Positions 1 to 63,142 of a stretch of DNA of 64,000 nucleotides are shown piece after piece. The first letter of the stretch is position 1. Each line of letters starts with the position of its first letter. The position numbers and the translations under genes were made by a program. The notes under the pieces were generated by a model. The model had not been told where the DNA came from and ran no database searches. It saw only the letters and a program-made list of their open reading frames with translations. This DNA comes from a virus (Duplodnaviria; Caudoviricetes). The DNA lies in the IMG/VR virus record IMGVR_UViG_3300037461_000655, positions 3,053-67,052 of that record. The stretch is one strand, 5' to 3'.

Positions 1-1057
1 CAAGTCCCTTCCGAAGATAGGTGTAATTGGTCTTGCGCGTCTCAGCAAACCACTTGATCCGCTCCATCTGGGCAACACCACAAGCAGCTTGCATGTCCGT
101 CATCTTGAGGTTGAAGCCCAACTCAGAGAACAAATACTTGTCGTCATAGCCAAGCGGCATCCCGCCCACTTGCCAGCCAAACCGTTTCCCACAGACGTTA
201 TCGTGATTTGGGGGACAGACGCATCGCTTCCCCCAGTTGCTTATTGATGCGACGATCTTGTGGAGCACTGAATTATCTGTGTAAACTGCACCCCCCTCGC
301 CCGTGGTGATTGTGTGGGCTGGGAAGAATGACAGCGTAGCGAGGTCACCCAGCACACCCACAGGAACACCGTCATACTTAGAGGTCATTGCATCGCAGGT
401 ATCATTGATGACCCAAAGAAAGTGCTCTTGCGCGATCTTCATGATGCGTGCCATATCACACGGATTGCCCAGGGTGTGGTCCAGCATGAGGGCCTTTGTG
501 TGTGGACCAATCGCATCGGCAACCTTTTCTGGATCAATGGTGTAGTAGGGCAGCTTGGCATCCACAAACACCGGTACGAGTCCACACTGGAGGAGGGGAT
601 TGACTGTGGTGGGGAAGCCCACAGCAGAGCAGATCACCTCATCGCCAGGGATAAGTGCTCGATAACCAAGGCTTGGCGACATGAGCGCAGCAACCGCCAA
701 CAGATTTGCAGACGATCCTGAATTGCAGGTTGTCACGTAGTCTGTACTTAGATACTCACCAAGTCGCTTCTCAAAGATAGGGTTCCACTTCCCTGTGCTG
801 GTGAGGTCCAGTGCGACTGCTGCTTCAACCATGTTCAAAGCTTCCTGCACACCCACCATCTTGCCTGTGCACGGGATATAAGTCTCCCCTGGCGTAAACT
901 TCTTGGCGCTAACCTTGTGCGAAACATAACTATCCACTAGTGCCAGGATCGCCGGGAGCAAATCTGGTCCACTACGAACATAGCGCAATGACGGATCAGC
1001 TTCAGCGAGATGCTCCGCGCTGATCTCAAGCTCGGATGCGATGGGTTTCTCGTTCAT
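1..1057 (-). CDS. rfbH: RfbH/DdhC-like CDP-4-keto-6-deoxy-D-glucose 3-dehydrase (E1; DegT/DnrJ PLP/PMP fold), 3' end truncated by the window edge
   Basis: Missing from the ORF track; translated by hand from ATG 1057 (ATGA overlap with the upstream stop), open to the edge. Motifs: CNSGSSANLLA, GFPTTVNP, HTLGNP, SFFPAHTITTGEGG (His at the aminotransferase Lys position, as in E1), Fe-S motif WGKRCVCPPNHDNVCGKRF, GFNLKMTDMQAACG. Confidence 0.9.
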   Translation of the reverse strand, partial: MNEKPIASELEISAEHLAEADPSLRYVRSGPDLLPAILALVDSYVSHKVSAKKFTPGETYIPCTGKMVGVQEALNMVEAAVALDLTSTGKWNPIFEKRLGEYLSTDYVTTCNSGSSANLLAVAALMSPSLGYRALIPGDEVICSAVGFPTTVNPLLQCGLVPVFVDAKLPYYTIDPEKVADAIGPHTKALMLDHTLGNPCDMARIMKIAQEHFLWVINDTCDAMTSKYDGVPVGVLGDLATLSFFPAHTITTGEGGAVYTDNSVLHKIVASISNWGKRCVCPPNHDNVCGKRFGWQVGGMPLGYDDKYLFSELGFNLKMTDMQAACGVAQMERIKWFAETRKTNYTYLRKGL

Positions 1058-2364
1058 TTTGTACTCCCAAGATCAGCATCATTGATGAAGTCGTAGCGAC
1101 CCTGCTCCATGGCCTCGCACATGTCCGGATAGCGATTGCAGAAGCTGCATGTCGGATAATAGGGCTGATGGATATAAGTCCTGAGCCTCTCTCGTAGATC
1201 TGGAGCATCAATGTCAAGTCGATCCATCCCTGGATCAACCAATCCGATATTATGAAGCGCGACGCCCAGGTCACAAGGATAAATCTTCCCATTGCAAGCT
1301 TGAAGATTGCGGGGTGGCATGACACACGTTTCCTTGTCATACAGCATCTCACCAACGCTCTTCTTGCGATCATAGAGCGTGCTTGGCTTCACCCATTTCA
1401 ACATAGGATTGCCCAATGTGTAGGAAAGCCCCATGCTCTTTACGATTTCCACATTGGTATGGAACACCTCAAGCTGCCGTTCACTCAACACGCGCTGGTA
1501 ATTCCCGAAGTTGATGCTCAACCGTGGATCTCGGAAATACTCCAGCTTCCAAGGGTAGAGGGGAACCGTGCCAGAAGTAGGGAAGGATGCTAGTCCGAAG
1601 TTGTCGCACTCCGACAGTGCCTTGGCGATGAGATGAATTTCGGGATGCGCGAAGGTTTCTCCACCCATTACCGATACACCACCGATGCTATCGCATGCGC
1701 CGAGCCATGCCTTGATGTCCTTGCAGACCCGTTCAGTGGGATAGTTTACCTGACGATCCTTGGGGTAGCTGTTGATGTACTGAACGCAGTACTTGCAATT
1801 CAACGTACAGAGCGAGTTGACAATCACGCAGACATAGGTGAGGTCGATCCGAGGTCCTGGTTTAGGCTCAGTGCGTGCAGCTACGATGTTGCCCAGCCGT
1901 TCGCAACATATAAATCTACAGGAAAGCGGATCAATACACTTCGAAGCCTTCACACCAGTCTTGGACGAAAAAGGGCACATGGCGCCCATGTAGAGATACT
2001 CACCCTTGATGGCATTACTGAACCCAGCTTGGCGCAGTTGCTCCCATAGATTTGACTTCACGACATTGTTATTGATTGCCAAAATCACAACCGTTTCGGC
2101 AGGGTTCCAGTCACCCGTGAAAGGTTTCCGAACAATGGACCCATTCAAGCTCTTGAGCTCATCAGCACGTTCGTCCCAATAGCACGTCACGCCAATTTTC
2201 TTCTGGGTCAAGTAATCACCGATCTCCGCACCAAAGTTCGCGGCACCGAAGATGATCACATGGGGGAATGAATTGATGTATTCAAGGAGCCCTTCGGGAT
2301 CAGGGTGATTGTCAGGCTGTAGGGCTTTGGCGTAGAAGGTATCAAGATCAAAGGACAGAGGCAT
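1054..2364 (-). CDS. Radical SAM protein with N-terminal Rossmann-like (PglD_N-like) domain and Cys-rich C-terminus
   Basis: CxxxCxxC motif CTLNCKYC, GGE motif (VMGGETF), C-terminal C...NGKIYPC...CSFC; N-terminal VIIFGAANFG. Confidence 0.8.
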   Translation of the reverse strand: MPLSFDLDTFYAKALQPDNHPDPEGLLEYINSFPHVIIFGAANFGAEIGDYLTQKKIGVTCYWDERADELKSLNGSIVRKPFTGDWNPAETVVILAINNNVVKSNLWEQLRQAGFSNAIKGEYLYMGAMCPFSSKTGVKASKCIDPLSCRFICCERLGNIVAARTEPKPGPRIDLTYVCVIVNSLCTLNCKYCVQYINSYPKDRQVNYPTERVCKDIKAWLGACDSIGGVSVMGGETFAHPEIHLIAKALSECDNFGLASFPTSGTVPLYPWKLEYFRDPRLSINFGNYQRVLSERQLEVFHTNVEIVKSMGLSYTLGNPMLKWVKPSTLYDRKKSVGEMLYDKETCVMPPRNLQACNGKIYPCDLGVALHNIGLVDPGMDRLDIDAPDLRERLRTYIHQPYYPTCSFCNRYPDMCEAMEQGRYDFINDADLGSTK

Positions 2365-3433
2365 AGAGCACCGTTTCGGAGTAATCGTGGTGATGGTGGC
2401 GGAGATAGATCTTGTACTCAGGCACTAGCTCATGGAGGTATTGAGGGATCAGCCAGAGGTCCGTCATTTTGTGGTAAACACAGATGGCCAGGTCGGGCTT
2501 GTGGGTCTTAATGGCCTCTTTCGCACCTTTGAGCATCTCCAACTCAAAGCCTTCAATGTCGGCCTTAATGAACGTCACAGATCGACCTTGGAGATAGTCA
2601 TCGAGTGAGTAAAGGGGCACCTCTTCGCCCTTGCGTTCTGCGAGATTGTAGAAGCTATTCCCAGCGCCATTAGGATCAGAGTCTTTCATACAGAGATGTA
2701 ATGCACCACTGAATTCACCAAGGCCACCAAACTCAACATCAATTTTATCCATGGGTAGATCAAACTTCTTAGCCACATCCAACTTACGAGTAAGCACTTG
2801 AAGATATAATGCAGGAGTAGGCTCAAATGAAATGATTTTCTCAAACTGACCATTAGTTGCTTCCGCGAACTCCATCATGGTATCACCGGTGTAAGCTCCA
2901 GCATCAATGAAGACGTGGTTCTTCTGTTGGTGTTTCTGAAAGTCCATGCACCAGTACTGCTTGTCCTCTTGCACGATCTTAAAATATGCAGAATCCTGCT
3001 CATAATGAGCACGAAGAACATGGTAGAAAACATCACGAGACCAATCATCAGCGAGCATGTGGTATACGGCATCCAGACGGTGCAACACGGGAGGATAGAT
3101 GAACTCGCCAATCGTAGCAGACTCAAAAAAGTTCAATGTCTTTTTGATTTTTGTCTGAGCTTCTACTGTCTGCACAGCTACCACAACGTAAGCACCCAGC
3201 GGAATCCGTTTTGGTGAAAATACAGGAAGCCCATGAAACACCGTCCCATGCTTACTAAGATTATCATCTATAAAGCCGATCACTTTATAACCTAGATCAC
3301 GTAATGTGAAGTAGGCATATTTCCCACGGTCACCCGCGCAATAAACTACCATGGGCTGGTCAGGGAAATGGTAAGGCGGACGATTCTTGTGGATGTGTTC
3401 TTTCAGCTCATCCCAGCGCTTTTCAATGTTCAT
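2348..3433 (-). CDS. FkbM-family SAM-dependent methyltransferase with N-terminal Rossmann-like domain
   Basis: VFIDAGAYTGDT, IISFEP, FIKADIEGFE, KPDLAICVYH motifs; start moved to ATG 3433 (ATGA overlap with the GT2 stop). Confidence 0.9.
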   Translation of the reverse strand: MNIEKRWDELKEHIHKNRPPYHFPDQPMVVYCAGDRGKYAYFTLRDLGYKVIGFIDDNLSKHGTVFHGLPVFSPKRIPLGAYVVVAVQTVEAQTKIKKTLNFFESATIGEFIYPPVLHRLDAVYHMLADDWSRDVFYHVLRAHYEQDSAYFKIVQEDKQYWCMDFQKHQQKNHVFIDAGAYTGDTMMEFAEATNGQFEKIISFEPTPALYLQVLTRKLDVAKKFDLPMDKIDVEFGGLGEFSGALHLCMKDSDPNGAGNSFYNLAERKGEEVPLYSLDDYLQGRSVTFIKADIEGFELEMLKGAKEAIKTHKPDLAICVYHKMTDLWLIPQYLHELVPEYKIYLRHHHHDYSETVLYASVL

Positions 3434-4641
3434 AGTGGGAACTCCTTCCAATGGAAAATAGGCACCTCGGTATTGGCGCGCCGAAGACGTGCTTCAATCT
3501 GTTCTTTAGGACGACGTTCACTGGAGATAAGTACCACGTCAACATTGTGATCACAGAGCCACTCCGTGGGATAAATATGAATGCCGGACATGCGGCTACC
3601 TTGGCGCTTTACGTTATCGTCCAAGAAGCAAATCACTTTTGCTGCAGAAACAATGCAATCCTCTGCGAGGAGGTAACTGTTCAAAAACGACCCAAAGATC
3701 GCTACGGTCTTCCCCCTAAGGGAATGTGTCCTCCCATCAGGGATTGCAGGAAGACTGTATTCGGGTGGATACTGTGCTTCAACTTCTGCCAATTCGCTTA
3801 GTAGCTTTGCTGTTGGTTGATCTTTGGTCAGTGCATCTAATACACGATGCCGTAGCAAAGATGCACGGACCATCGGAACTACATCCAGCTTTCCCATGAT
3901 CTTACACATGCTCAACATCTCCTCATGCAGCGCGATGTCACTAGGTGTTATATCCAGCTGGAACGTTTCTGAGCCGGTGTGCACACGATAGTCAATCAGC
4001 GGCTCTGCAATGTAACCAACCCACCCATACATATTGCACTGGCATACCGTGAAGATATCGCCCAGTGGGCCAATGTGCACAGGCGGAGCACCACCTCCCC
4101 ATGGATGGCATTCTGCCTTAGCGCGGATTGGTGGAACGGCGGAAACTCGGATCATGTGCGTTGAGCATTTAATATGGAACCGCTCTTTCATATAAGCTTG
4201 GATGTACTCCCCTTGGCGAAAGATAATGTCCTGTGTATTGGTATCCTGACACTCTTGGGTAATGTGTCCATCCTCGTCAATGATCCTCGCATTGGCTCCT
4301 ACCAACGTCATCTCTGGGCACTTCTCCATCATTGCAATCTCACGTTCCACGATGGTTGGATGGAGAATATCATCATCATGCGTGTGGAGCACAAACTCAC
4401 CACGGGAGCGACGTAACCCTTCCTCCCATGCCACAGGACTCCCACCATGCACCGCTCGTCGCACATAAACAAGGCGGGGGTCTGTGAAGAGTTTGATGAT
4501 CTCCGAAGTGTTATCTGTGGAGCAATCATCCACCACGACAACCTCAATATCCTTGTAGGTTTGGTTAAGAATCGCCTGGATGCAGCCGTGTAGCATCTTA
4601 GCTCTGTTTCGGGTGGTTACCATCACGCTGACTTTGGGCAT
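3430..4641 (-). CDS. Family 2 glycosyltransferase with C-terminal Rossmann-like domain
   Basis: VSVMVTTRNR, EVVVVDDCSTDNT, HTHDDD (DxD-like), DYRVH; ATG 4641 overlaps the upstream TAA (TAATG). Confidence 0.88.
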   Translation of the reverse strand: MPKVSVMVTTRNRAKMLHGCIQAILNQTYKDIEVVVVDDCSTDNTSEIIKLFTDPRLVYVRRAVHGGSPVAWEEGLRRSRGEFVLHTHDDDILHPTIVEREIAMMEKCPEMTLVGANARIIDEDGHITQECQDTNTQDIIFRQGEYIQAYMKERFHIKCSTHMIRVSAVPPIRAKAECHPWGGGAPPVHIGPLGDIFTVCQCNMYGWVGYIAEPLIDYRVHTGSETFQLDITPSDIALHEEMLSMCKIMGKLDVVPMVRASLLRHRVLDALTKDQPTAKLLSELAEVEAQYPPEYSLPAIPDGRTHSLRGKTVAIFGSFLNSYLLAEDCIVSAAKVICFLDDNVKRQGSRMSGIHIYPTEWLCDHNVDVVLISSERRPKEQIEARLRRANTEVPIFHWKEFPL

Positions 4642-5726
4642 TACTTCACTCCCTTCTTCAAAGGCATTCCGAAGCTCGCGCACCATGCGGAAAATTCGTT
4701 ATACCGACATAAATAATTCCGGTTGATCCTATTGACATCAATGCGCTCGAACATCTCACGGATAGACGCCTCGATAACCGCAAGGGGCTCACCAGGCATC
4801 AATGGTATGCCCATATAATCACAGGCGTCGCGTGATCGCATGTCGGTGTTGGTAGTGATCGCAGGAACACCTGCGTTCATCGCAATCACTGACCCATGGC
4901 ACCGAGTTCCCACCATGCAGTGACAATGCTTAGAAATGTGCCGCTTCCATTCATCAGGGTTCATGAAGAAGTGTGTGAGTCCTCCCAGGTAAGCATCTGA
5001 GGTTGGATTATGGAGTTGGCAAATTAGGTTCATGTCATCGTCACCTTGCACATAGTGATGAACGCGCTCGGTTATGGGCTCATAGACCATCTTACCATTC
5101 AACCCTATCCGCAAGGTTTTGCCTTCATCCTGGAGGAACGGTTGTCGGATGAGCCTACCTGGCCCCATTTCGAAATTACTAGGACAGCCTACAGCCTTCA
5201 CATTGGTTAGCCCTGCATCGCACAGGATGCGCTCAGTGATATGTCCACGTGTCCCGATGCTGAAAGCTCTATCGCCCAGCAATTCAAATAGGTGCCGCTT
5301 GATGGGTGTGAGTTTGTCCCAAATGGTGGTGTCGTAGGGTTGTGGGAATGGCATAATGGAGTTCGCGCATAAGCTCATCACAATGAGCTTGGTCTTGTGC
5401 GGATCAATCGCTTCTACGTAACGGCTTACGGAGTCGTACCAGTTATCCTCGCCCTCTGGATCTGTGTAATAGGTTTCTCTGAGGTAGTCTTGGAGGACCA
5501 GTATTACATGGCTAATGTCGCACAAGCTTTTCCGGAATCGGAGCAGCTCACGTGAATTACCATTACCAGGGGAGTTGAAAAAGGCTGTATTAGTTTCATT
5601 CAGGCCAAGCAGCTTCTCAATGGAGTAAGCGATGTAGTAGTTTCCACTGTTCCCATTAGTCTCGTTGAACCATAGCGGGTCCAGTGGTGATCGTGTGCTG
5701 AAGTTGCGATTGAGCAGTGCGTACAT
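4641..5726 (-). CDS. Polysaccharide pyruvyl transferase family protein
   Basis: N-terminal GNSGNYYI, SIGTRGHITERIL, VGCPS and VGTRCHGSVIAMNAGVPA patterns; ATG 5726 overlaps the NeuB stop. Confidence 0.65.
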   Translation of the reverse strand: MYALLNRNFSTRSPLDPLWFNETNGNSGNYYIAYSIEKLLGLNETNTAFFNSPGNGNSRELLRFRKSLCDISHVILVLQDYLRETYYTDPEGEDNWYDSVSRYVEAIDPHKTKLIVMSLCANSIMPFPQPYDTTIWDKLTPIKRHLFELLGDRAFSIGTRGHITERILCDAGLTNVKAVGCPSNFEMGPGRLIRQPFLQDEGKTLRIGLNGKMVYEPITERVHHYVQGDDDMNLICQLHNPTSDAYLGGLTHFFMNPDEWKRHISKHCHCMVGTRCHGSVIAMNAGVPAITTNTDMRSRDACDYMGIPLMPGEPLAVIEASIREMFERIDVNRINRNYLCRYNEFSAWCASFGMPLKKGVK

Positions 5727-6799
5727 CACAAACCTCTGTTTTCAATGTGCGCCCGAAGCTTCGGGTCACGTGAGTAATCATTATCCAGATGGCCAATGGT
5801 CAGTGGATCATCCTTACGAAGTGAACGGATCAGCATCTCGCAGGAAAGGTGTTCTCGATTGCAAAGTTGCCCTTTCTGAAGGGGAACAGCCAGATAAAGA
5901 TCGCCTTCTTGGAGCACATGGCCCACTTCGAGGTCCCGCGTGGCATAGGCCCCACGGACCAGCGCATCAAGGTACTCAATCTCTTTACGAGGTGGAAGTC
6001 GCTTTTCGCAGCCTGGTGCACCGCACATCTCCTTGGCCTTGGCCCAAGCTTTGAACCAAGCATCTACTTGATGAGGCAAGGAGCAATAAGGGGAAACTGT
6101 GACACCATCGGCATTTATGTCTACATGGCGTTCATAGGTCCGTGCGCCCTTTGCCACAGCAATCGCAATGCTAGTCTGCCAGTCTGTGTACTCATGAGTG
6201 GAGAGGCCGATAACGTGATCGGGATAGCGATTCCGCAGAAAGTCAATCTGGTTTAGTTCTAGATCTTCATCTGCTGTTGGGTAGAGTGCAACGCAGTGAT
6301 TAATTGCCAAGGGAATGTGACGGTTTTTGAAGAACTTCACCACATTGTCGATATCTGCAAGAGAGGTTCCACCTGTTGAGACAATCACTGGGAGTTTAGT
6401 GGATGCCATCTTGCGGAGTAGTCCCCAATCAGCCACATCAGAAGAGGCAATCTTTAGGACCTCACACCCGATCTCCACCGCAAGTTCGACACTCCGCTCA
6501 TCAAAGCACGTCGCACAGACCATACAGCCCTCTTTGCGAATCGCATCAGCAAAGGTATGATAGGCTTCGCGGGGGAGTTGCGTAGCAGTGATCTTCTTGA
6601 TATAACGGCACTCGCTTGTACAAAAGTCCTTATGCACAAATGTGCTCACATCCCGAAGTTGAAGCTTGATAGCAGCGCGCACACCATTGTAATAGATGAT
6701 CCGCCCGAAGTCTTTGATGATTTTTAGCCCACGGTCTATGCTGCCTAAATGGTTGTTCGCCATCTCCAACACGAAAAGGTCTTCAAAGATTCGGGTCAT
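5726..6799 (-). CDS. neuB: NeuB/SpsE-family nonulosonate (sialic-acid-type) synthase with C-terminal SAF-like domain
   Basis: VLEMANNHLG, AIKLQ, LKIASSD, PVIVSTGG, INHCVALYP, VIGLSTHE, GARTYERH motifs. Confidence 0.88.
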   Translation of the reverse strand: MTRIFEDLFVLEMANNHLGSIDRGLKIIKDFGRIIYYNGVRAAIKLQLRDVSTFVHKDFCTSECRYIKKITATQLPREAYHTFADAIRKEGCMVCATCFDERSVELAVEIGCEVLKIASSDVADWGLLRKMASTKLPVIVSTGGTSLADIDNVVKFFKNRHIPLAINHCVALYPTADEDLELNQIDFLRNRYPDHVIGLSTHEYTDWQTSIAIAVAKGARTYERHVDINADGVTVSPYCSLPHQVDAWFKAWAKAKEMCGAPGCEKRLPPRKEIEYLDALVRGAYATRDLEVGHVLQEGDLYLAVPLQKGQLCNREHLSCEMLIRSLRKDDPLTIGHLDNDYSRDPKLRAHIENRGL

Positions 6800-7288: not shown

Positions 7289-7635
7289 CACTTCACCGTT
7301 TGTGGAAGTGCATGCTTCCACTCTACGGCATCTACAATGCTCCCTAATGACACTATGGCTTGCCCGTACACCGGTTCAACTTCGTTGAGCTTGCCGTCGC
7401 GGATCGCTTCATTATAGCGCCCCGTGTCAGCGATCCACGCCGCAGAATCTAGAACGAGAAAGCCGCCTTGCGTTGTCACGACCTGTCCCGTCCATGTCAT
7501 GGTGACTGTTCGGATGAGGTAGCATTTACCAACATGGAAAGGCGTCGGATTACCAACATCATTCATAGTGGCACCACCCAACCCTTTTAACTCTTTCACT
7601 TGGCCTAGTGTTAGGTCATCGATATTGATGCTCAT
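7288..7635 (-). CDS. Conserved phage hypothetical protein (Sm-like beta fold suspected)
   Basis: MSINIDDLTLGQVKEL...YLIRTVTMTWTG...AAWIADTGR pattern, which I recognise from environmental phages; coupled overlaps at both ends. Confidence 0.7.
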   Translation of the reverse strand: MSINIDDLTLGQVKELKGLGGATMNDVGNPTPFHVGKCYLIRTVTMTWTGQVVTTQGGFLVLDSAAWIADTGRYNEAIRDGKLNEVEPVYGQAIVSLGSIVDAVEWKHALPQTVK

Positions 7636-8294
7636 AGTCCCTCCTTTAGGGGAAATTTGATACGTGGTTCGAAGTTCTGTGCAGGATCAACTAGAACTTC
7701 AATCAACACAGGGCCAGGCCACTCCTCCAGCGCGTCTGCCAAGTCGTCTTCGTCCTCCACCAGTTCATACCGTAAGCCGTAAGCCTGAGCAAGCAACTCG
7801 AAGTCAGGGAAACCCACACCCGATTCAAGCCCTATACCGGCATAGTGACCACCGAAAAAGCGATCTTGGGTTTGTCGAATGCTCACATAGCCTGAATTGT
7901 TTAGCACAAAGATCGTTATGGGCAGATCATTGTGTGCGATAGTAGCGAGATCCCCCACGCTCATCTGGAGCGAGCCATCCCCCTCAATCAGGATCACACG
8001 CTGACCTGGCTTCGCGCCCCGTGCCGCTCCAATGGCTGCGCCCACGCCCCAGCCCATCGCAGAGCTTCCACCGTTGGTGTAGAGGCGCTGGCCCTCTTTG
8101 ATCTTCGCGGCCTGGAACGTTGCAACGGTGGCGGTTCCATTCGCACAAACGATGATGGTGTCCTCACGCAGCTGGTCGAAGAGCTGTGCCATGAAGGCGT
8201 AGGGATTCAGCCTCGGTGTATCGTGGTACTCAGGCAGGATAACGGGGTATTTTGCCTGCCATTCGTAGCACTGAGCGAGCCATGTTGGATTCAT
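7632..8294 (-). CDS. TPP-binding C-terminal domain of an acetolactate-synthase-like (YerE-like) enzyme, second half of a split gene
   Basis: SAMGWGVGAAIGA and the TPP/Mg motif EGDGSLQM...VLNNSGY; RBS GGGAGGAGG before ATG 8294. Confidence 0.88.
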   Translation of the reverse strand: MNPTWLAQCYEWQAKYPVILPEYHDTPRLNPYAFMAQLFDQLREDTIIVCANGTATVATFQAAKIKEGQRLYTNGGSSAMGWGVGAAIGAARGAKPGQRVILIEGDGSLQMSVGDLATIAHNDLPITIFVLNNSGYVSIRQTQDRFFGGHYAGIGLESGVGFPDFELLAQAYGLRYELVEDEDDLADALEEWPGPVLIEVLVDPAQNFEPRIKFPLKEGL

Positions 8295-8307
8295 GATTCC
8301 TCCTCCC

Positions 8308-9456
8308 CTAAGTTTGCACAAGAGGGTGATACTCTTGCGCGGTCTTTCCAAAGGTGCTCGCTATAGCACTATGCGCTGTTCGGGGTTGAGGATCACCAAG
8401 AGAACCGTCCGGATGCATCAACCTGATTTCCGGATGCACTCTCAGAAAATAGGTTTTATATTCACCATCTGGCTCCGGTGTAGAGTTAATGACTTCTACC
8501 ATAAGCATGGGCTCATCATCTTTAAAACGTCGTTCCCACAGTTTGCCGGTCTCATCTTCATGCAATAGTGTGGAGCCAGAATCTGTCAAGAAACGAGATT
8601 GCCCATAACGCTCAATCATAACACGGCGGACTTCTACGTTCTTCTCTTTTAGCACATCACTACAAGTGATCATCTCTGGATTTTCAATAATCTTGGCCGG
8701 GACACGTACACCCTTGTAGGCGAATACGGCATAACCGTCTGAGAATGCGAGTGCAGGGCCGGTCTCGCAATGTAATAGGTTGCGTTCATTCTGGTGGATT
8801 TCGGTAGGGCGATCACAAATAAAACAGATGCCATCGAGAGCATAAATCCACCCACAGGACCGCGTTAGCCGTTCCCATTGAGACAATAGCGCTCGATCCT
8901 CATTGGAGAACATGGGGTGTATGAAGCGATCTGGGAATGTGTAATAGCTAATCCATGCGATGTCCCACTGTCCCCAGGAAAAAGCATCAACCCATTCGAT
9001 TTTCATGTCCCCAAGGTTGGCCCAAAGGTTGTCCCGAAGGTTGTCCTGAAGGTTGTCCCCAAGGTTGTCCTGAAGGTTGTCCCCAAGGTTGTCCACAAGG
9101 TTGTCCTGAAGGTTGGCCCGAAGGTTGTCCACAAGGTTGTCCACAAGGTTGTACCAAAGGTTGTCCCAAAGGTTGGCCTAAAGGTTGTCCCCAAGGTTGT
9201 CCTGAAGGTTGGCCACAAGGTTGGCCAATTTCCCGCTTCGCAAGATATTGATTTCAAGTTGTGCCTGGAAAGGCGATTGGCAGAGAAAAAATTTAGGTGT
9301 TGGTTTCCCAATGCGTCGATAAAAATCTGTCAATACCTCTACGGATGCTTGGGCATCCATCTTGTCAGTGGATAACCCGATTTTAAGACATTCGTCTCTC
9401 CAGGAAACCATTCGTGTTTCCTGCTCCAAAGTGAGGGATAATATTTTCTTCTTCAT
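8308..9456 (-). pseudogene. DUF6745-like phage protein with a tetrapeptide repeat, interrupted by an in-frame TAG at 9178-9180
   Basis: Track ORFs 9178..9492 and 8308..9144 are in the same frame, separated by one TAG. C-terminal features: CGWIY, LHCETGPALAFSDG, NVEVRRVMIERYG, VEVINSTPEPDG...YFLRV. Confidence 0.75.
9007..9226. repeat. 12-bp tandem repeat, 18 units, minus-strand consensus NNG-G(A/C)C-AAC-CTT (x-D/A-N-L)
   Basis: aaggtt recurs exactly every 12 nt from 9013 to 9217. Confidence 0.97.
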
Positions 9457-9457
9457 G

Positions 9458-9763
9458 TCAATCCGCCACTCGCTGCGTTCCGAGAGGGTCATATTCCCGC
9501 TGGATGTAGCTCACGTAATCCCCAGGCGGAAGAGTAACAGGCGCATGTTCTTCGTGGACGAGATCCACGGGAGATTCAACATGTAGATATATCTTGCCAT
9601 CTTTCTCGTATGCCACGCATATGGTGGGATCGGCAACAATGACGTGTTGATGCCCTGTTACCTCGCCATCTGCCAAAACGATGCGCGGGCCAAGGATTGG
9701 TTTTGCATCCTTGGGGATGTCAGACTGTTGAACGAAAACGTCGCCCTGTCTGTAGCATTTCAT
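9458..9763 (-). CDS. Conserved phage hypothetical protein, usual neighbour of DUF6745-type genes (His-rich, cupin-like)
   Basis: YRQGDV...LADGEVTGHQH...LVHEEHAPVTLPPGDY...QREY pattern. Confidence 0.75.
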   Translation of the reverse strand: MKCYRQGDVFVQQSDIPKDAKPILGPRIVLADGEVTGHQHVIVADPTICVAYEKDGKIYLHVESPVDLVHEEHAPVTLPPGDYVSYIQREYDPLGTQRVAD

Positions 9764-10797
9764 TGTGGTGCCTCTTGAGAGTGAAGAAGTTTTGAAAGAA
9801 ACTCTTTTAGATCCGCGTGGATGGGCAGGTCGATCTTGGGGAAGGGCTTTGTCAGCTCAGCCTCATCAATGTCCACCATCACCTTGTAGGCTTTGGGAGC
9901 GAAGGCATCCCAGTTGAAGCTGACACTTCGGATGTTGCACCGGCTCCCCAGGATCAACAGGAAGTCGCTCTTCTGCACCGCGAGGTTCCCTGCGATGTCG
10001 CCGATGGTTCCCTGCCGTCCGATGTAACAGGGATGATCGCTAGGGATCAGGTCATGGCCGTTGTAGGCCGTCACCACGGGGATTCCTAACAGTTCCACCA
10101 GTGCCCGGAACTCCTCCACCGCACCCGCCGTGCGGATACCTGAGCCCGCGAGGCTCACGGGACGCCTGGCCCTAACTAGCCGATCCATGAGAGCATGAAC
10201 GCCGTTGCTGATGTCAGGCAATTCCTCTTCCCATAGTAGGGTGTCATCTTGCATTTCAGCAGGGTTAACCTCTCTGGCTTGTATGTCCACAGGGATGCTT
10301 AGCCACACAGGGCCAGGACGCCGGGTGGTAGCTAGGCCGAGAGCAATGAAGAGGTGATTCTTGGTGGTGTAGACATCAATTATTTCTTCTGCATACTTCG
10401 TGATGTCTCGCACCATCTCCATGATTGGCGTTTCTTGATCGCCCAGTTGCCGCAACTGCCCGGTGAAGCGCAGATCCCTATTGATCGTCCGCGAGTCGCA
10501 TTGCCCAGAGATCACGATCATGCCCATGGAGTCGCAGTAGGCCCCATGCACACCCGTCACAGCATTCAAGCTTCCTGGTCCAGCCGTTACGCAGACACAA
10601 GCCAACCTGCCGGTCAAGCGGAAGTAACTCTCAGCAGCACAGACGCATGCATTCTCATGAGCAAAATAAGTCACGCGAAGATCAGGGTGCTTAGCGAAGC
10701 TGTCATTGAGGTGCATGCTCGCACCACCCACCACCGAGAAAACCTCAGTGATCCCAGCATCCACAAGGGTTTGGGCTACGTAGTCTGAAAGTTTCAC
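9760..10797 (-). CDS. N-terminal and central domains of an acetolactate-synthase-like TPP enzyme (YerE-like), first half of a split gene
   Basis: MKLSDYVA...VFSVVGGASMHL, HENAC (catalytic Glu), TAGPG, RPGPVWLSIPVDIQ, GNLAVQKSDFLLILGSR; stops before the TPP-binding domain. Confidence 0.9.
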   Translation of the reverse strand: MKLSDYVAQTLVDAGITEVFSVVGGASMHLNDSFAKHPDLRVTYFAHENACVCAAESYFRLTGRLACVCVTAGPGSLNAVTGVHGAYCDSMGMIVISGQCDSRTINRDLRFTGQLRQLGDQETPIMEMVRDITKYAEEIIDVYTTKNHLFIALGLATTRRPGPVWLSIPVDIQAREVNPAEMQDDTLLWEEELPDISNGVHALMDRLVRARRPVSLAGSGIRTAGAVEEFRALVELLGIPVVTAYNGHDLIPSDHPCYIGRQGTIGDIAGNLAVQKSDFLLILGSRCNIRSVSFNWDAFAPKAYKVMVDIDEAELTKPFPKIDLPIHADLKEFLSKLLHSQEAPQ

Positions 10798-11754: not shown

Positions 11755-11888
11755 TTCACATCTCCATTCTTTTGGCAAATAACCCAATGCCTGAGCCATT
11801 GGCTAGTCCATGCTCGATAAAGACACCACGCTACGATGCCTAAGAATGCTACAACATCAATGAACTTTGCTATGATTTGCCCTGTCAT
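11751..11888 (-). CDS. Small membrane peptide (45 aa)
   Basis: ATG 11888 overlaps the deaminase TGA; hydrophobic core; ends in an ATGA overlap. Confidence 0.45.
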   Translation of the reverse strand: MTGQIIAKFIDVVAFLGIVAWCLYRAWTSQWLRHWVICQKNGDVK

Positions 11889-12331
11889 AAAAGTAATTCC
11901 CAAATACGTCCAGTCTTCAACCAAAGCTCTTTTGGTAGTGGGTCTACATGTTCTTCTAAAAACACAATACGCTGGCAACTTGTATTCAGTAATAATTTTA
12001 AGCAAGCTTTACATGGGCTTAGTGTGACATAAGCAGTTTCAATATCAGAAGTTTCACGGCACTGTAAAAGTGCGTTCATCTCCGCGTGCACAGCTTCACA
12101 CGTATCTTTTCCAGGGGGTAGATCATGGCCTATACAAAGATTACTCCAGCGGTGTTCTGTGTCTAGCTCATTACAATGTGGAAGTCCACGAGCGACGCCA
12201 TTATAACCAATTGCTAAAACATGCCCTTGTTTGTTAGCAAGCACACACCCAACACCCCGTCGAATACACGTCGTACGAGTAGCTGCTACCTTAGCAAGCT
12301 CCATCAAATATTGATCAAGAGTAGGCCTCAT
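11885..12331 (-). CDS. dCMP deaminase (cytidine/deoxycytidylate deaminase family)
   Basis: CIRRGVGCVL, HAEMNAL and SPCKAC zinc-binding motifs. Confidence 0.92.
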   Translation of the reverse strand: MRPTLDQYLMELAKVAATRTTCIRRGVGCVLANKQGHVLAIGYNGVARGLPHCNELDTEHRWSNLCIGHDLPPGKDTCEAVHAEMNALLQCRETSDIETAYVTLSPCKACLKLLLNTSCQRIVFLEEHVDPLPKELWLKTGRIWELLL

Positions 12332-12726
12332 AAAGATTCCAACCTTAAGCTAGGTTTATGGTCAGGAGCTCGCCAGAACGGCGGTTTAATAATGTCAAGT
12401 GTTGTCCCGTGCTTACTCTCCTCAGGTCGTTGTGCCCGTACTTTCTCCATATTAGCGCGCTGCACTTCAACCCACAAAGCATCCCATGGGAGCCCCATAC
12501 AAATAGCTGTCCCATGCACGATATAGGCCAGATCTATTAAGGCATCTGCAGCCCCCTCAAGATCATCAGCTCCATGTGCTTCTGCAAATTCATCAAGCTC
12601 TTCTGTAAGGCGCTTTAGCCTAAAAACTAACGTTGTGTCATCTAGCAACCCTGGTTTCACTAATCTGGGTATTCCAAATTTTGTAAAAAATGCTTGAACG
12701 TCTTCATGGTCAGTAGTTTCACGCAT
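12328..12726 (-). CDS. MazG-like all-alpha NTP pyrophosphohydrolase
   Basis: EELDEF...DALIDLAYIVHGTA...VQRANMEK...IIKP pattern. Confidence 0.85.
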   Translation of the reverse strand: MRETTDHEDVQAFFTKFGIPRLVKPGLLDDTTLVFRLKRLTEELDEFAEAHGADDLEGAADALIDLAYIVHGTAICMGLPWDALWVEVQRANMEKVRAQRPEESKHGTTLDIIKPPFWRAPDHKPSLRLESL

Positions 12727-12735
12727 CTCAGTCCC

Positions 12736-13584
12736 CTAAACATTAAGCTTAGCACTTACTGCATCATGAGCTAGGTAATCTATTAGCCTAGCACCTTCAG
12801 GTTCAAACCCAAATAATGAAGTCTCAGACCTAAGTCCTAGCATAGGAGCTTTGTAGGGTTTTCGCTTGAGTACTTCTGTTACTTGTGGAAGATGATTAAG
12901 ATACACATGAGCATCCCCGATGAAGAAAGTGAGCTCATTGCTTTGCAGCCCTACCTCCTTAGCAATCAGCCGTTGGAGTAGTGCGTAACCAGCCAAGTCA
13001 AAAGGTAGCCCTAAGAATAGATCACATGATCGTTGGTAAACAGCCATTCTAAGTTGTGACCCCACTATGTAACACTGAAATAGGATAGGGCATGGTGGGA
13101 GGCACATACAATCCAGCTCACCGGGATTCCACGCAGTGACAATATGACGTCGACCATGAGGTTCCCTACGGAGCCCATCTATAAGCACTTGAAGTTGATC
13201 CGTCGTTTTCATTTGGCAACTAGTCGCTTGCACAGATTCAATAGACCGCCAGGTTCGCCAGTTGACCCCGTAAATACGCCCAAGATCACCATCAAATTCT
13301 TGTTTCCCAGAAGCGAGCCACCGTGGGTCTGTGCCATTACCATCCCAGACCGTGCACCCTTTAGCGTGAAAGGCTTCAAGACTATGGCTTCCGCTAATAA
13401 AACATGCCATTTCAGCTGCGCATTGCCTAAAAGCTAGGCGTTTTGTAGTTACAGCTGGAAAAGTAGTAGAGTTAGAAACAGTTATCTGTTCCGCAAATAA
13501 AGCTAGTGTCCCAGTGCCTGTTCGGTCTTGCCGGGAAGTTCCATGATTAAGAACTTTTCTAAGGAGCGTAAGCCAAACCCTCAT
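12736..13584 (-). CDS. thyA: Thymidylate synthase homolog with Asp at the Asn177 position (candidate dCMP methylase/hydroxymethylase)
   Basis: DRTGTGT, FPAVTTK, DLGRIYGVNWR, RRHIVTAWNP, LPPCP, QRSCDLFLGLPFD, GDAHVYLNH; start moved to ATG 13584. Confidence 0.9.
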   Translation of the reverse strand: MRVWLTLLRKVLNHGTSRQDRTGTGTLALFAEQITVSNSTTFPAVTTKRLAFRQCAAEMACFISGSHSLEAFHAKGCTVWDGNGTDPRWLASGKQEFDGDLGRIYGVNWRTWRSIESVQATSCQMKTTDQLQVLIDGLRREPHGRRHIVTAWNPGELDCMCLPPCPILFQCYIVGSQLRMAVYQRSCDLFLGLPFDLAGYALLQRLIAKEVGLQSNELTFFIGDAHVYLNHLPQVTEVLKRKPYKAPMLGLRSETSLFGFEPEGARLIDYLAHDAVSAKLNV

Positions 13585-13585
13585 T

Positions 13586-13915
13586 TCATTGCTCCTCGCG
13601 ATCATCTAATTCAGGATGCCGCTTAGTCATACTAAGCAGAAACATAAGACAGCACATCGCATGCGCAAGATGTGGTAGATTGCTTTCAGGATCGAGATCT
13701 TCACCCTTAATAAAGGCGAACAAATGCCGCAAAGCTGCTCCAATAAGCCGACTAAATGCTAAACCTTTAGTCCAATTCCATGGCGCATACTTTTGAGCTC
13801 CAAAAGTTAGAACACACGCAAGCTGCTCTATTGCATAAGGATCAAGCAACTCCATACGAGGCTTCTCGGCATCAAATTTAGTAGCTCCAAGTTGAGAAGT
13901 AGGCTCAAGCCCCAT
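13586..13915 (-). CDS. dATP/dGTP diphosphohydrolase N-terminal-type protein (DUF5664)
   Basis: KFDAEKPRMELL...VLTFGAQKYAPWNWTKG...AALRHL...GEDLDPES.LPHLAHA pattern. Confidence 0.85.
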   Translation of the reverse strand: MGLEPTSQLGATKFDAEKPRMELLDPYAIEQLACVLTFGAQKYAPWNWTKGLAFSRLIGAALRHLFAFIKGEDLDPESNLPHLAHAMCCLMFLLSMTKRHPELDDREEQ

Positions 13916-22191: not shown

Positions 22192-22575
22192 TTACATTGA
22201 AAGCTTGACTGTAGGACCTTCATTTATTGAACTACTCTCTACGTGATACTCTCGTTCAAGCTCTGCGAAAATTCCTCGTATGATATCAGGCTCTGTTTTG
22301 AAGTCCCGAAATGCATGACAAAAAGTCACTAATGGAATACCATGTTGAAGTCCAAGTGACACTGCTACAGCAAAAGCATGCATCATTGCACGCCCAAAAG
22401 TCCCTTCGCGTTGGTGGTCAAGAAAAATCTCTCCTAGACTACCGTCTACATACTCACCTGTAGCTAGATGAACTCGGGCAGCGCCTATTCCAACTTCAAC
22501 TCTTAAGCCTTCACGACGGTCTTTCAACCGATACCTTAGTGCAGCTGGTGGAGCGCTCCCGAATTCATTAGCCAT
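22192..22575 (-). CDS. Stand-alone TSCPD-like domain (C-terminal module of class II ribonucleotide reductase)
   Basis: TGEYVDGSLGEIF...AFAVAVSLGLQHGIPL...F.D.KTEP pattern. Confidence 0.7.
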   Translation of the reverse strand: MANEFGSAPPAALRYRLKDRREGLRVEVGIGAARVHLATGEYVDGSLGEIFLDHQREGTFGRAMMHAFAVAVSLGLQHGIPLVTFCHAFRDFKTEPDIIRGIFAELEREYHVESSSINEGPTVKLSM

Positions 22576-22839: not shown

Positions 22840-23067
22840 TTATTCTACACAATTTTTATTAAGCCAACCTAACAAATCTGCTTTATTTGTAGGTACCTCT
22901 GTTTCTTCATAAGTCACTTGGCGGGTCGTAGTATCCCCTATTGCAAGCTTAGCTTTAGCCTCGCGACACTCAGCCATGGAACCCGCCCATATCTTTGTCG
23001 TTCCTTGTACTTTGACTTTGTAACAACGCATTCTACAGCTCCTTTGAAAGATAGCCTCAGCTATCAA
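22840..23067 (-). CDS. Small phage hypothetical protein
   Basis: ORF track; EVPTNKADLLGWLN motif; overlaps the DHFR stop. Confidence 0.6.
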   Translation of the reverse strand: MIAEAIFQRSCRMRCYKVKVQGTTKIWAGSMAECREAKAKLAIGDTTTRQVTYEETEVPTNKADLLGWLNKNCVE

Positions 23068-23591
23068 AAGTTAGTCCAAATTTGATACTTACTTAATATT
23101 GGTTGCCTTATTACTGGGCCATCTTGAATAATTGTCCAACCAGATAATAGCTTAGGAAAAAATGTATCGCACTCAAATTCACCAGCTACTCTGGTTAGGT
23201 GTAAGTGGGTAGGCACCCCACCTCGTGCTAACCACAAAGCTTCTTCCCAAGCCTGATAACCTCCTAATACAAATAGAGGCCCAAATCGTTGAGCTTCGGC
23301 AACTGCTAACGCATCCGCAACAGTCCTACAAATAGAACCGTTTGAATCAAAGCCTATTGGAAGTTTTTCAAATTTGGTTGTTAATAAAATATTATAGCGT
23401 TGTGAAAGGTATTGCCCATCTGTTACTATGGGCAGGGATTGCCATGTGCGGCGTCCGTAGCACACACAACCACCTAATGTTAGTGCGCGCATGCGCTTAA
23501 GGTCCTCGGGCAAAGTCCACGGAATACCTCCATTTTTACCCACACCATTAATATCATCTAGAGCCGCTATCAAAACTAGCCTTACGGGCAT
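23064..23591 (-). CDS. folA: Dihydrofolate reductase
   Basis: LIAALD..NGVGKNGGIPWTLPEDLKR, YGRRTWQSLP, RYNILLT, VLGG, FECDTFFP. Confidence 0.92.
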   Translation of the reverse strand: MPVRLVLIAALDDINGVGKNGGIPWTLPEDLKRMRALTLGGCVCYGRRTWQSLPIVTDGQYLSQRYNILLTTKFEKLPIGFDSNGSICRTVADALAVAEAQRFGPLFVLGGYQAWEEALWLARGGVPTHLHLTRVAGEFECDTFFPKLLSGWTIIQDGPVIRQPILSKYQIWTNF

Positions 23592-62389: not shown

Positions 62390-63142
62390 TCACAAGTTTT
62401 CACGTAGCGCCTCCGCCTGAAACCTTTCGGCTAGTCGCAGCGCTTCCGCACGAGTGAAATCAAAAGCCCTCACTCTTTGTTCGCATGTCTCGCTTCCATC
62501 ATTCGGGAATTGTCCCAAATTGCTATCTCGAATCCCAATCGCGTCCCACTCGTCAACTGGTTTCCATAGGCATCCCATTCTCACCCACGGGCACCCTTCC
62601 GCAGTAGCGAATGCCCAGCATTCATACGGATAGAGCCCCGAGAACACTGACAGACTATGTATTTTTATTGCATCGCCAAGATCGGTCCCGCGAAGATCGG
62701 TCCCGCTAAGAACGGCCCCGCGAAGAACGGCATCGCTAAGATCGGCCCGGCGAAGATCGGCCCGGCTAAGATCGGCCCCGCTAAGAACGGCCTCGCTAAG
62801 ATCGGCCCCGCTAAGATCGGCATCGCTAAGATCGGTCCCGCTAAGAACGGCCCGGCTAAGATCGGCCCCGCTAAGAACGGCATCGCGAAGATCGGCATTG
62901 CCAAGATCGGCCCCGCTAAGAACGGCATCGCGAAGATCGGCCCGGCTAAGAACGGCCCGGCTAAGATCGGCCCGGCTAAGATCGGCCCCGCTAAGATCGG
63001 CATCGCTAAGATCGGCCCCGCGAAGATCGGTCCCGCGAAGATCGGTCCCGCTAAGAACGGCCCGGTTTCCGTTCCCATTCTCTAGCCATTTTTCGTGTTT
63101 AGCCCGTACGGTTTGGAGCTCGTCTAGTGTGTAACGTTTCAT
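62390..63142 (-). CDS. Pentapeptide repeat protein with a C-terminal accessory domain
   Basis: 26 A(D/V)L(S/R)x units; H.KWL N-terminus; VRMGC...EW C-terminus. Confidence 0.92.
   Translation of the reverse strand: MKRYTLDELQTVRAKHEKWLENGNGNRAVLSGTDLRGTDLRGADLSDADLSGADLSRADLSRAVLSRADLRDAVLSGADLGNADLRDAVLSGADLSRAVLSGTDLSDADLSGADLSEAVLSGADLSRADLRRADLSDAVLRGAVLSGTDLRGTDLGDAIKIHSLSVFSGLYPYECWAFATAEGCPWVRMGCLWKPVDEWDAIGIRDSNLGQFPNDGSETCEQRVRAFDFTRAEALRLAERFQAEALRENL
62672..63061. repeat. 15-bp tandem repeat, 26 units, minus-strand consensus (G/A)CC-G(A/T)T-CTT-(A/C/G)GC-NNN
   Basis: Directly visible. Confidence 0.95.

Follow-up and report, generated by a model that had tools for sequence, protein, structure and literature searches.

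Enzymes of the thymidylate-synthase fold have repeatedly evolved new chemistry (PMC13326640), and published work links the type of reaction to a few active-site positions, given here in the numbering of E. coli ThyA. Asp177 directs the enzyme to deoxycytidylate (dCMP) as the substrate (PMC13326640; PMC8670742); it has been described as the switch to dCMP specificity, and the engineered L. casei thymidylate synthase N229D as a dCMP methylase (Liu & Santi 1992, as cited in PMC8670742). A bulky hydrophobic residue at position 143 shuts out water and leads to a methyl product, whereas Asp or Glu at this position leads to a hydroxymethyl product, and Asn169 is the mark of flavin-dependent 5-hydroxy-dCMP synthases (PMC13326640). 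Positions 147 and 177 are the thymidylate-synthase sites most associated with cytosine-modified phage contigs (PMC8670742). Here we describe a ThyA homologue with Asp177 that is encoded by an uncultured phage of the class Caudoviricetes (IMG/VR record IMGVR_UViG_3300037461_000655, a complete phage genome of 67,052 bp with direct terminal repeats). The window, i.e. the whole 64,000-nucleotide stretch of DNA that was analysed, corresponds to bases 3053-67052 of this genome, and the coordinates below are those of the window unless stated otherwise.

The closest described systems are found in Xanthomonas phage Xp12 (MT664984) and Pseudomonas phage PaMx74 (JQ067093), in which cytosine is fully replaced by 5-methylcytosine (5mC) (bioRxiv 10.1101/2024.12.05.627091), and in contigs recovered from metagenomes as carriers of modified cytosine. 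A 'new thymidylate biosynthesis' in cells infected with Xp12 was reported in 1982, as was a 5-methyl-dCTP deaminase (both as cited in PMC11946847). On modified contigs, 70% of the dCMP-deaminase genes have a thymidylate-synthase gene no more than 3 kb away, PRA-PH ranks with the top co-localised domains, and five of the seven deaminase-linked Asp177 enzymes, as well as the Xp12 enzyme, make 5-methyldeoxycytidine (5mdC) in vivo (bioRxiv 10.1101/2024.12.05.627091). According to the same work, the linked deaminase mSCD-B5 turns 5mdCTP, not 5mdCMP, into a thymidine nucleotide (dTTP), and the preference of such deaminases for 5mC nucleotides is polyphyletic and not predictable from sequence.

The ThyA homologue of this phage belongs to a system of this kind. 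Judging from its residues and gene context, it is probably a deoxycytidylate 5-methyltransferase that would bring 5mC into the phage DNA, with thymidylate obtained through deamination of 5-methyl-dC nucleotides. The gene is located on the minus strand (12736..13605; PF00303 Thymidylat_synt, E 1.3e-80) and is the second of four tightly packed minus-strand genes, which encode a PF18909/DUF5664 protein, the ThyA homologue, a MazG/PRA-PH protein and a dCMP-family deaminase. It is also the sole member of its family, as neither a second thymidylate-synthase-family gene nor ThyX was found in the complete genome. The longest open reading frame (ORF) has 289 aa, but the true start is probably ATG 13584 (Met8), which would give a protein of 282 aa; this codon is separated by 1 nt from the DUF5664 stop, is preceded by a GAGGAG box and fits the N-termini of the homologues.

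The translated ORF contains YQRSCDLFLGLPFDLAGYA and CLPPCPILFQ. In HMMER alignments to solved thymidylate synthases, Asp203 aligns with the Asn of GVPFN and Pro173 with the His of PPCH, and our own alignment to E. coli ThyA gives D at position 177 and P at position 147. The codon of Asp203, at the base-specificity position, is GAC (12997..12999, minus strand), that of the catalytic Cys172 (Cys146) is TGC (13092-13090) and that of Pro173, at the His147 position, is CCT (13089-13087), the two together occupying 13087..13092 of the minus strand. Leu169 (CTC, 13099..13101, minus strand) corresponds to Leu143 of E. coli ThyA, where a hydrophobic residue marks the methyl-product type, and position 169 is occupied by Asp195, so that the complete signature reads L143/C146/P147/D169/D177. 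A reading made from the sequence alone (hereafter the sequence-only reading) had noted Asp (GAC 12999-12997) in place of Asn177 and PPCP in place of PPCH; both substitutions are seen in the translation and in the alignments.

In other respects the protein closely resembles canonical thymidylate synthases (EC 2.1.1.45) such as those of E. coli and phage RB69 (td). The Thymidylat_synt profile is covered at positions 3-265 of 266, and the AF2 model (mean predicted local distance difference test score, pLDDT, of 94.5) matches solved thymidylate synthases, including the human and E. coli enzymes, with Foldseek TM scores of 0.87-0.91; over the canonical enzymes as a class the TM range is 0.87-0.95. 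Identity to E. coli ThyA is ∼39%, as compared with 19-24% to the hydroxy- and hydroxymethylases (∼21% to T4 gp42), and the protein shares with the canonical enzymes the catalytic and folate-site residues, Leu143 and the C-terminal tail (AKLNV in the query, APVAI in E. coli), which is absent from the hydroxymethylases. The differences are the substitutions Asn177 to Asp and His147 to Pro, which shift the base specificity from uracil to cytosine.

We fetched the reference genes and rechecked the residue rules in our own alignments at positions 143, 147, 169 and 177. The query has L/P/D/D at these positions, E. coli ThyA and RB69 td have L/H/D/N, and the 5mC phages Xp12 and PaMx74 have N/P/D/D. 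Among the other enzymes, T4 gp42 has D/T/D/D, as do AXL3 gp28, Xp15 ZI and the 'hmase' of the Manatee Spring contig, SPO1 gp29 has D/N/D/N and RB69 gp48 has E/T/N/D. Thus, Asp177 occurs in T4 gp42, Xp12 and PaMx74, in agreement with the earlier statement that it is found in T4 dCMP hydroxymethylase and acts as the dCMP switch. The query lacks both residues of the canonical dUMP type, Asn177, by which O4 and N3-H of uracil are recognised, and His147 (Asp203 and Pro173 stand in their places), the acidic residue 143 with which the T4 gp42 type admits or activates water (Leu169 instead) and the Asn169 (D169N) of the RB69 gp48 and DLP3 gp80 type (Asp195 instead). Asp177, a non-acidic residue 143 and Asp169 make up the signature of a dCMP 5-methyltransferase, and all three are present. 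Taken with the published rules, the L/P/D/D combination joins cytosine specificity to a methyl-type pocket; at the level of residues, the enzyme matches the published dCMP-methylation signature and has Pro147 in common with proven methylases.

The conservation of these residues was assessed in 121 sequences, namely the query plus the 120 best homologues from the database search. Asp177 is found in 119 of the 121 sequences, and from this we judge that it is no sporadic change. Cys146, Leu143, Asp169, R166, S167, H207 and Y209 are kept in all 121; the query has every residue of the wider set R21, E58, W80, Y94, R166, S167, H207 and Y209, and these are kept in 120-121 of the sequences. Pro147 is limited to 20 of the 121, which form the closest sub-clade. 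The L143/D177 combination is carried by at least 23 of the 150 best representatives of 50%-identity clusters, and no match in any cultured phage exceeds 41% identity. Two proteins (P0016 and P0058) have Asn177 within the otherwise Asp177 clade and may be reversions to dUMP specificity. Two other L143/D177 homologues, P0035 (455 aa) and P0130 (449 aa), are ∼165 aa longer and match in two separated stretches, which suggests that the middle of the enzyme is interrupted, e.g. by an intein or an additional domain.

The comparison with Xp12 and PaMx74 shows both the likeness and the distance. In each of these phages there is a ThyA homologue with Asp177, Pro147 and Asp169, an adjoining NTP (nucleoside triphosphate) pyrophosphohydrolase homologous to the MazG protein of the window, a dCMP-family deaminase directly downstream and a dihydrofolate reductase (DHFR) gene in the genome, and no second thymidylate synthase was seen. 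The gene order in Xp12 and PaMx74 is pyrophosphohydrolase, ThyA homologue, deaminase and DHFR, the last two adjoining each other, whereas in the present phage the MazG gene stands between the ThyA homologue and the deaminase, the DUF5664 gene is added upstream and the DHFR gene is 10.7 kb away. The ThyA homologues of Xp12 and PaMx74 are only 26-29% identical to the query and the deaminases only 29-31% identical to that of the window. Furthermore, the Xp12-type enzymes have Asn143 and a loop insertion before the catalytic Cys, whereas the query has Leu143 and no insertion. A tree with known methylases and hydroxymethylases, as proposed in the sequence-only reading, placed Xp12 and PaMx74 on a long branch separate from the query; it was a quick IQ-TREE reconstruction in which the positions of the Xp12, T4 gp42, SPO1 and RB69 gp48 branches are unreliable. 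For the contigs identified by MetaGPA (PMC8670742; bioRxiv 10.1101/2024.12.05.627091), the domain neighbourhood described is that of the present locus: Thymidylat_synt is accompanied by PRA-PH and by dCMP_cyt_deam_1 with MafB19-deam, and DNA_pol_A lies in the vicinity. The discriminating residues are those at positions 147 and 177.

Analysis of gene neighbourhoods showed a strict association between Asp177 and the deaminase. A ThyA profile was used to fetch 80 IMG/VR loci, six with Asp177 and 74 with Asn177 ThyA genes. A deaminase 59-71% identical to that of the window is encoded 0.6-1.2 kb downstream in all six Asp177 loci and in none of the 74 Asn177 loci (Fisher p = 3e-9). Five of the six Asp177 loci also have a MazG homologue at a distance of up to 3.5 kb, and many of the 74 Asn177 loci have a DHFR gene directly upstream instead. 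The order ThyA, PRA-PH, deaminase is identical in three metagenomic phage contigs with close homologues (L095, L096 and L097), one of which shares its replication module with this phage and also has the PF18909 gene upstream. The PF18909 gene lies upstream of the ThyA homologue only in loci L004 and L095.

The partner genes named in the sequence-only reading, i.e. DUF5664, a MazG-like pyrophosphatase, a dCMP deaminase and a DHFR at 23 kb, were all recovered by Pfam matches. The deaminase (148 aa; 11885..12331, minus strand; PF00383 dCMP_cyt_deam_1, E 5e-20) has the zinc motifs HAE and PCxxC of the dCMP/cytidine-deaminase family, its start codon and the MazG stop overlap in ATGA, and its gene, like those of the mSCD type, is located beside an Asp177 ThyA homologue; it is a putative 5-methyl-dC nucleotide deaminase. 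The MazG-like (PRA-PH) protein (132 aa; 12328..12726, minus strand; Pfam PRA-PH, E 1.4e-11) is an all-alpha NTP pyrophosphohydrolase and a putative dCTP/dUTP pyrophosphatase. Over 101 aa it shares 46% identity with the N-terminal domain of PaMx74 gp53, whose gene is next to that of the PaMx74 ThyA homologue, and it is 38% identical to the protein encoded next to the Xp12 ThyA homologue; its nearest solved structure is the MazG-like DR2231. The PF18909 protein (dGTP_diPhyd_N, formerly DUF5664; 109 aa; 13586..13915, minus strand; Pfam E 3.5e-34) is a putative deoxynucleoside triphosphate (dNTP) pyrophosphohydrolase that matches PHROG 801, 'dATP/dGTP pyrophosphohydrolase' (E 4e-43); its single-sequence AlphaFold model (three helices, pLDDT 56) was too poor for a fold search. 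A standalone DUF5664 protein of Arthrobacter phage Wayne, which has a Z-genome, hydrolyses dATP, dUTP and dGTP to the monophosphates (PMC12884076). The DHFR (DHFR_1, PF00186, E 4e-26; 175 aa) is encoded at 23064..23591, also on the minus strand. DHFR was considered as a conserved partner and rejected, as it is missing in five related contigs and is therefore no fixed part of the set.

From these features we infer the substrates, the products and the base content of the DNA as follows. Cys172 would attack C6 of dCMP, and Asp203 would hydrogen-bond N3 and N4 of cytosine, choosing dCMP over dUMP. The methylene group of 5,10-methylenetetrahydrofolate (5,10-CH2-THF) would then be moved to C5 and reduced by the folate hydride, as we propose because Leu169 and the closed C-terminal tail exclude water, to give 5-methyl-dCMP and dihydrofolate (DHF), from which the phage DHFR would regenerate THF. 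The MazG-like and/or DUF5664 enzymes most likely cut dCTP, and possibly dUTP, to the monophosphate; hydrolysis of dCTP would both supply the methylase with substrate and prevent unmodified C from entering the DNA. The conversion of 5-methyl-dCMP to 5-methyl-dCTP would be carried out by kinases, probably those of the host because none is recognisable in the phage, and the family-A phage polymerase would incorporate 5mdCTP. The adjacent deaminase would draw on the pool of 5-methyl-dC nucleotides and convert some of them to thymidine nucleotides, and the phage would therefore not need a dUMP-specific thymidylate synthase. In the virion DNA, C is expected to be replaced by 5mC at most or all positions.

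This scheme retains most of what the sequence-only reading had proposed. It had left the product open between 5-methyl-dCMP and 5-hydroxymethyl-dCMP; Leu143, the C-terminal tail, the identity to ThyA and the DHFR favour the methyl product and disfavour the other one. The DHFR had been taken there to favour methylation, and we likewise count the gene found at 23 kb towards methyl transfer. The suggested thymidylate route through the deaminase is supported by the gene linkage and is the pathway published for Xp12 and the MetaGPA contigs, with the qualification that mSCD-B5, the one deaminase of this kind to be characterised, acts on 5-methyl-dCTP and not on 5-methyl-dCMP.

Several points weigh against the assignment to dCMP methylation and 5mC DNA. 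The rule for Leu143 is a correlation, and two of the seven tested Asp177 homologues gave no 5mdC (bioRxiv 10.1101/2024.12.05.627091). The query does not share a lineage with the proven Xp12 enzyme, from which it is separated by low identity, the missing loop insertion and a different branch, so that the assignment rests on few residues and on context. In Microbacterium phages, where the closest cultured homologues of the MazG protein occur, the neighbouring gene encodes a thymidylate kinase, and the 7.4-kb stretch shown contains no ThyA gene; the substrate of MazG is thus not readable from homology. A search of the complete genome found neither a phage dNMP (deoxynucleoside monophosphate) kinase nor a thymidylate kinase, and PF00186 DHFR was not found in five related IMG/VR contigs, including one with 95% completeness. 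Finally, the phage genome avoids certain C-containing palindromes: CCGCGG occurs 0 times (15.5 expected) and CCCGGG 0 times (6.8 expected), and GTAC is scarce. Such avoidance would be needless if 5mC blocked the respective enzymes.

The missing dNMP kinase and the palindrome avoidance also count in favour of an ordinary supply of thymidylate to a phage with canonical DNA, which we consider unlikely. The enzyme would either keep its dUMP activity despite Asp177 or methylate dCMP only on the way to a dT nucleotide; little or no 5mC would enter the DNA, and the deaminase, DHFR and pyrophosphatases would form a nucleotide-supply module. The 39% identity to E. coli ThyA and the presence of every catalytic residue agree with this, as does the fact that thymidylate synthase, dCMP deaminase and DHFR are the classical phage set for dTMP supply, and so do the lack of a phage dNMP kinase and the two clade members out of 121 that are back to Asn177. 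Yet the other 119 have Asp177, and the adjacent deaminase is found in none of the 74 Asn177 phage loci. Moreover, contigs with such gene pairs have been physically enriched as cytosine-modified DNA, five of seven of their enzymes put 5mdC into DNA (bioRxiv 10.1101/2024.12.05.627091), and the cultured carriers Xp12 and PaMx74 replace C fully by 5mC. The strong avoidance of C-palindromes suggests DNA that is still exposed to restriction, and GTAC is completely absent from two relatives with the same ThyA/MazG/deaminase block (L095 and L096; 0 vs 37 and 0 vs 27 expected); the depletion in these three genomes suggests restriction pressure not relieved by modification. However, the proven 5mC phages Xp12 and PaMx74 show a comparable depletion of other palindromes, with TGATCA and TTCGAA absent, so that palindrome depletion does not discriminate between modified and unmodified DNA.

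It is quite improbable that the enzyme is a dCMP hydroxymethylase, with 5-hydroxymethyl-dCMP as the product and 5-hydroxymethylcytosine (5hmC) in DNA then decorated, e.g. by the glycosyltransferases and sugar genes of the leftward arm. Asp177 is common to the query and T4 gp42, and it also links the query to the enzymes of AXL3 (L098), Xp15 (L100) and the Manatee Spring contig (MW202621; L099), whose adjacent deaminases are 44-49% identical to that of the window and thus partner ThyA homologues of the hydroxymethylase type. The phage also encodes two GT2 proteins and a long set of sugar-nucleotide/glycan genes. However, Leu143 is invariant in the clade, whereas all aligned hydroxymethylases have Asp or Glu; T4 gp42 and the three enzymes just mentioned have Asp143 and Thr147, are only 21-24% identical to the query (∼21% for T4 gp42 vs 39% for canonical ThyA) and lack a C-terminus of the thymidylate-synthase type, which the query retains in a genome with a DHFR. 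As for the sugar genes, they appear to be of the glycan or nonulosonic-acid type, are unlinked to the ThyA block and are not near the block in close relatives.

A separate observation concerns these reference phages themselves. The ThyA homologues of AXL3 (a Stenotrophomonas phage), Xp15 (a Xanthomonas phage) and MW202621 have the hydroxymethylase signature D143/T147/D177, and in Xp15 a carbamoyltransferase is encoded two genes upstream of the ThyA homologue. This suggests 5hmC-derived DNA, possibly with carbamoyloxymethyl-C, in cultured phages whose enzymes are annotated only as 'thymidylate synthase'.

The sugar cluster includes a DegT aminotransferase, an epimerase, a radical SAM protein, an FkbM methyltransferase, GT2, a pyruvyl transferase, NeuB and a split thiamine pyrophosphate (TPP) enzyme, and looks like a glycan or nonulosonic-acid pathway. 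It runs past the left edge of the window (1054-6799 of the window and 1-4500 of the genome, G000, the latter stretch analysed as L094), with the NAD-dependent epimerase/dehydratase at 749-1678 and the DegT/DnrJ aminotransferase at 2721-4109 of L094. The TPP enzyme is split over 7632-10797 of the window (minus strand), with TPP_N and TPP_M at 9760-10797 and TPP_C at 7632-8351; the region between the halves holds two small ORFs and a gene for a DUF6745 protein (8308-9144) in which DNLxDNL repeats occur. The sequence-only reading had suggested that this cluster could hypermodify hydroxymethylcytosine. This is not supported: the signature of the enzyme is of the methyl type, and a search of the complete genome found no Tet/JBP dioxygenase (Tet_JBP) for conversion of 5mC to 5hmC and no C5 DNA methyltransferase for post-replicative methylation. 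With glycan-type genes unlinked to the block and neither of these enzymes present, hypermodification of the DNA by the sugar cluster is unlikely.

A particular form of this idea, to which we give very little credence, is that 5-methyl-dC (or minor 5-hydroxymethyl-dC) would be only the first step, after which the unlinked glycan genes (radical SAM, the two GT2 proteins, NeuB, pyruvyl transferase and DegT aminotransferase) would add a sugar-derived group to give a new hypermodified base. Its more modest version, covered by the same low estimate, is that the DUF5664 protein would be a dCTP/dUTP pyrophosphatase, a new specificity for a family known only for hydrolysis of dATP, dGTP and dUTP in Z-genome phages (PMC12884076).

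Still less credible is another product at C5, either 5-hydroxy-dCMP made by a flavin-dependent enzyme of the RB69 gp48 type or a product of a ribonucleotide substrate (MilA-like), for even though the fold has repeatedly gained new chemistry (PMC13326640) and Pro147 is unusual, D169N is missing (Asp169 in 121 of 121 sequences), there is no acidic residue at position 143, the folate site has all its residues and Pro147 is shared with Xp12 and PaMx74, whose enzymes are proven methylases.

As for the rest of the genome, the leftward arm (minus strand) carries the sugar/glycan genes, the ThyA block, an SNF2 helicase, a PD-(D/E)XK nuclease, the family-A DNA polymerase, a pyrimidine-dimer glycosylase, the DHFR and a primase-helicase-like protein; the rightward arm carries the terminase, portal and tail genes. 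A megablast search with 21 kb of the window against GenBank phages gave zero matches. Near the DHFR gene there is a small standalone TSCPD-domain protein (127 aa; 22192-22575, minus strand); this domain is usual in class II ribonucleotide reductases, and no reductase gene was seen in this phage. A pentapeptide-repeat protein (250 aa; E 1.5e-47) is encoded at 62390-63142 on the minus strand, and, taken with DUF6745 and with CGATCG avoidance, it hints that the host may be a cyanobacterium.

Published work already covers the residue signature and the cassette, as well as the pathway (for Xp12 and the MetaGPA contigs), so that the mechanism put forward in the sequence-only reading is essentially the published one. 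Its observation is confirmed and its interpretation, dCMP methylation, is supported, but with positions 147 and 177 already reported (PMC8670742) the interpretation is right rather than new. The present phage is a real case of a known kind of system and opens no new question. It is a well-resolved example of a lineage of canonical-ThyA-like L143/D177 enzymes (here with P147 in addition) that is distinct from the Xp12 lineage and common in metagenomes. 5mC-replaced DNA resists many restriction enzymes, and the deaminases linked to such methylases are useful as 5mC-selective sequencing reagents (bioRxiv 10.1101/2024.12.05.627091). If the assignment is true, a complete 67-kb uncultured phage would package 5mC DNA and would draw its thymidylate from deaminated methylated cytosine nucleotides.

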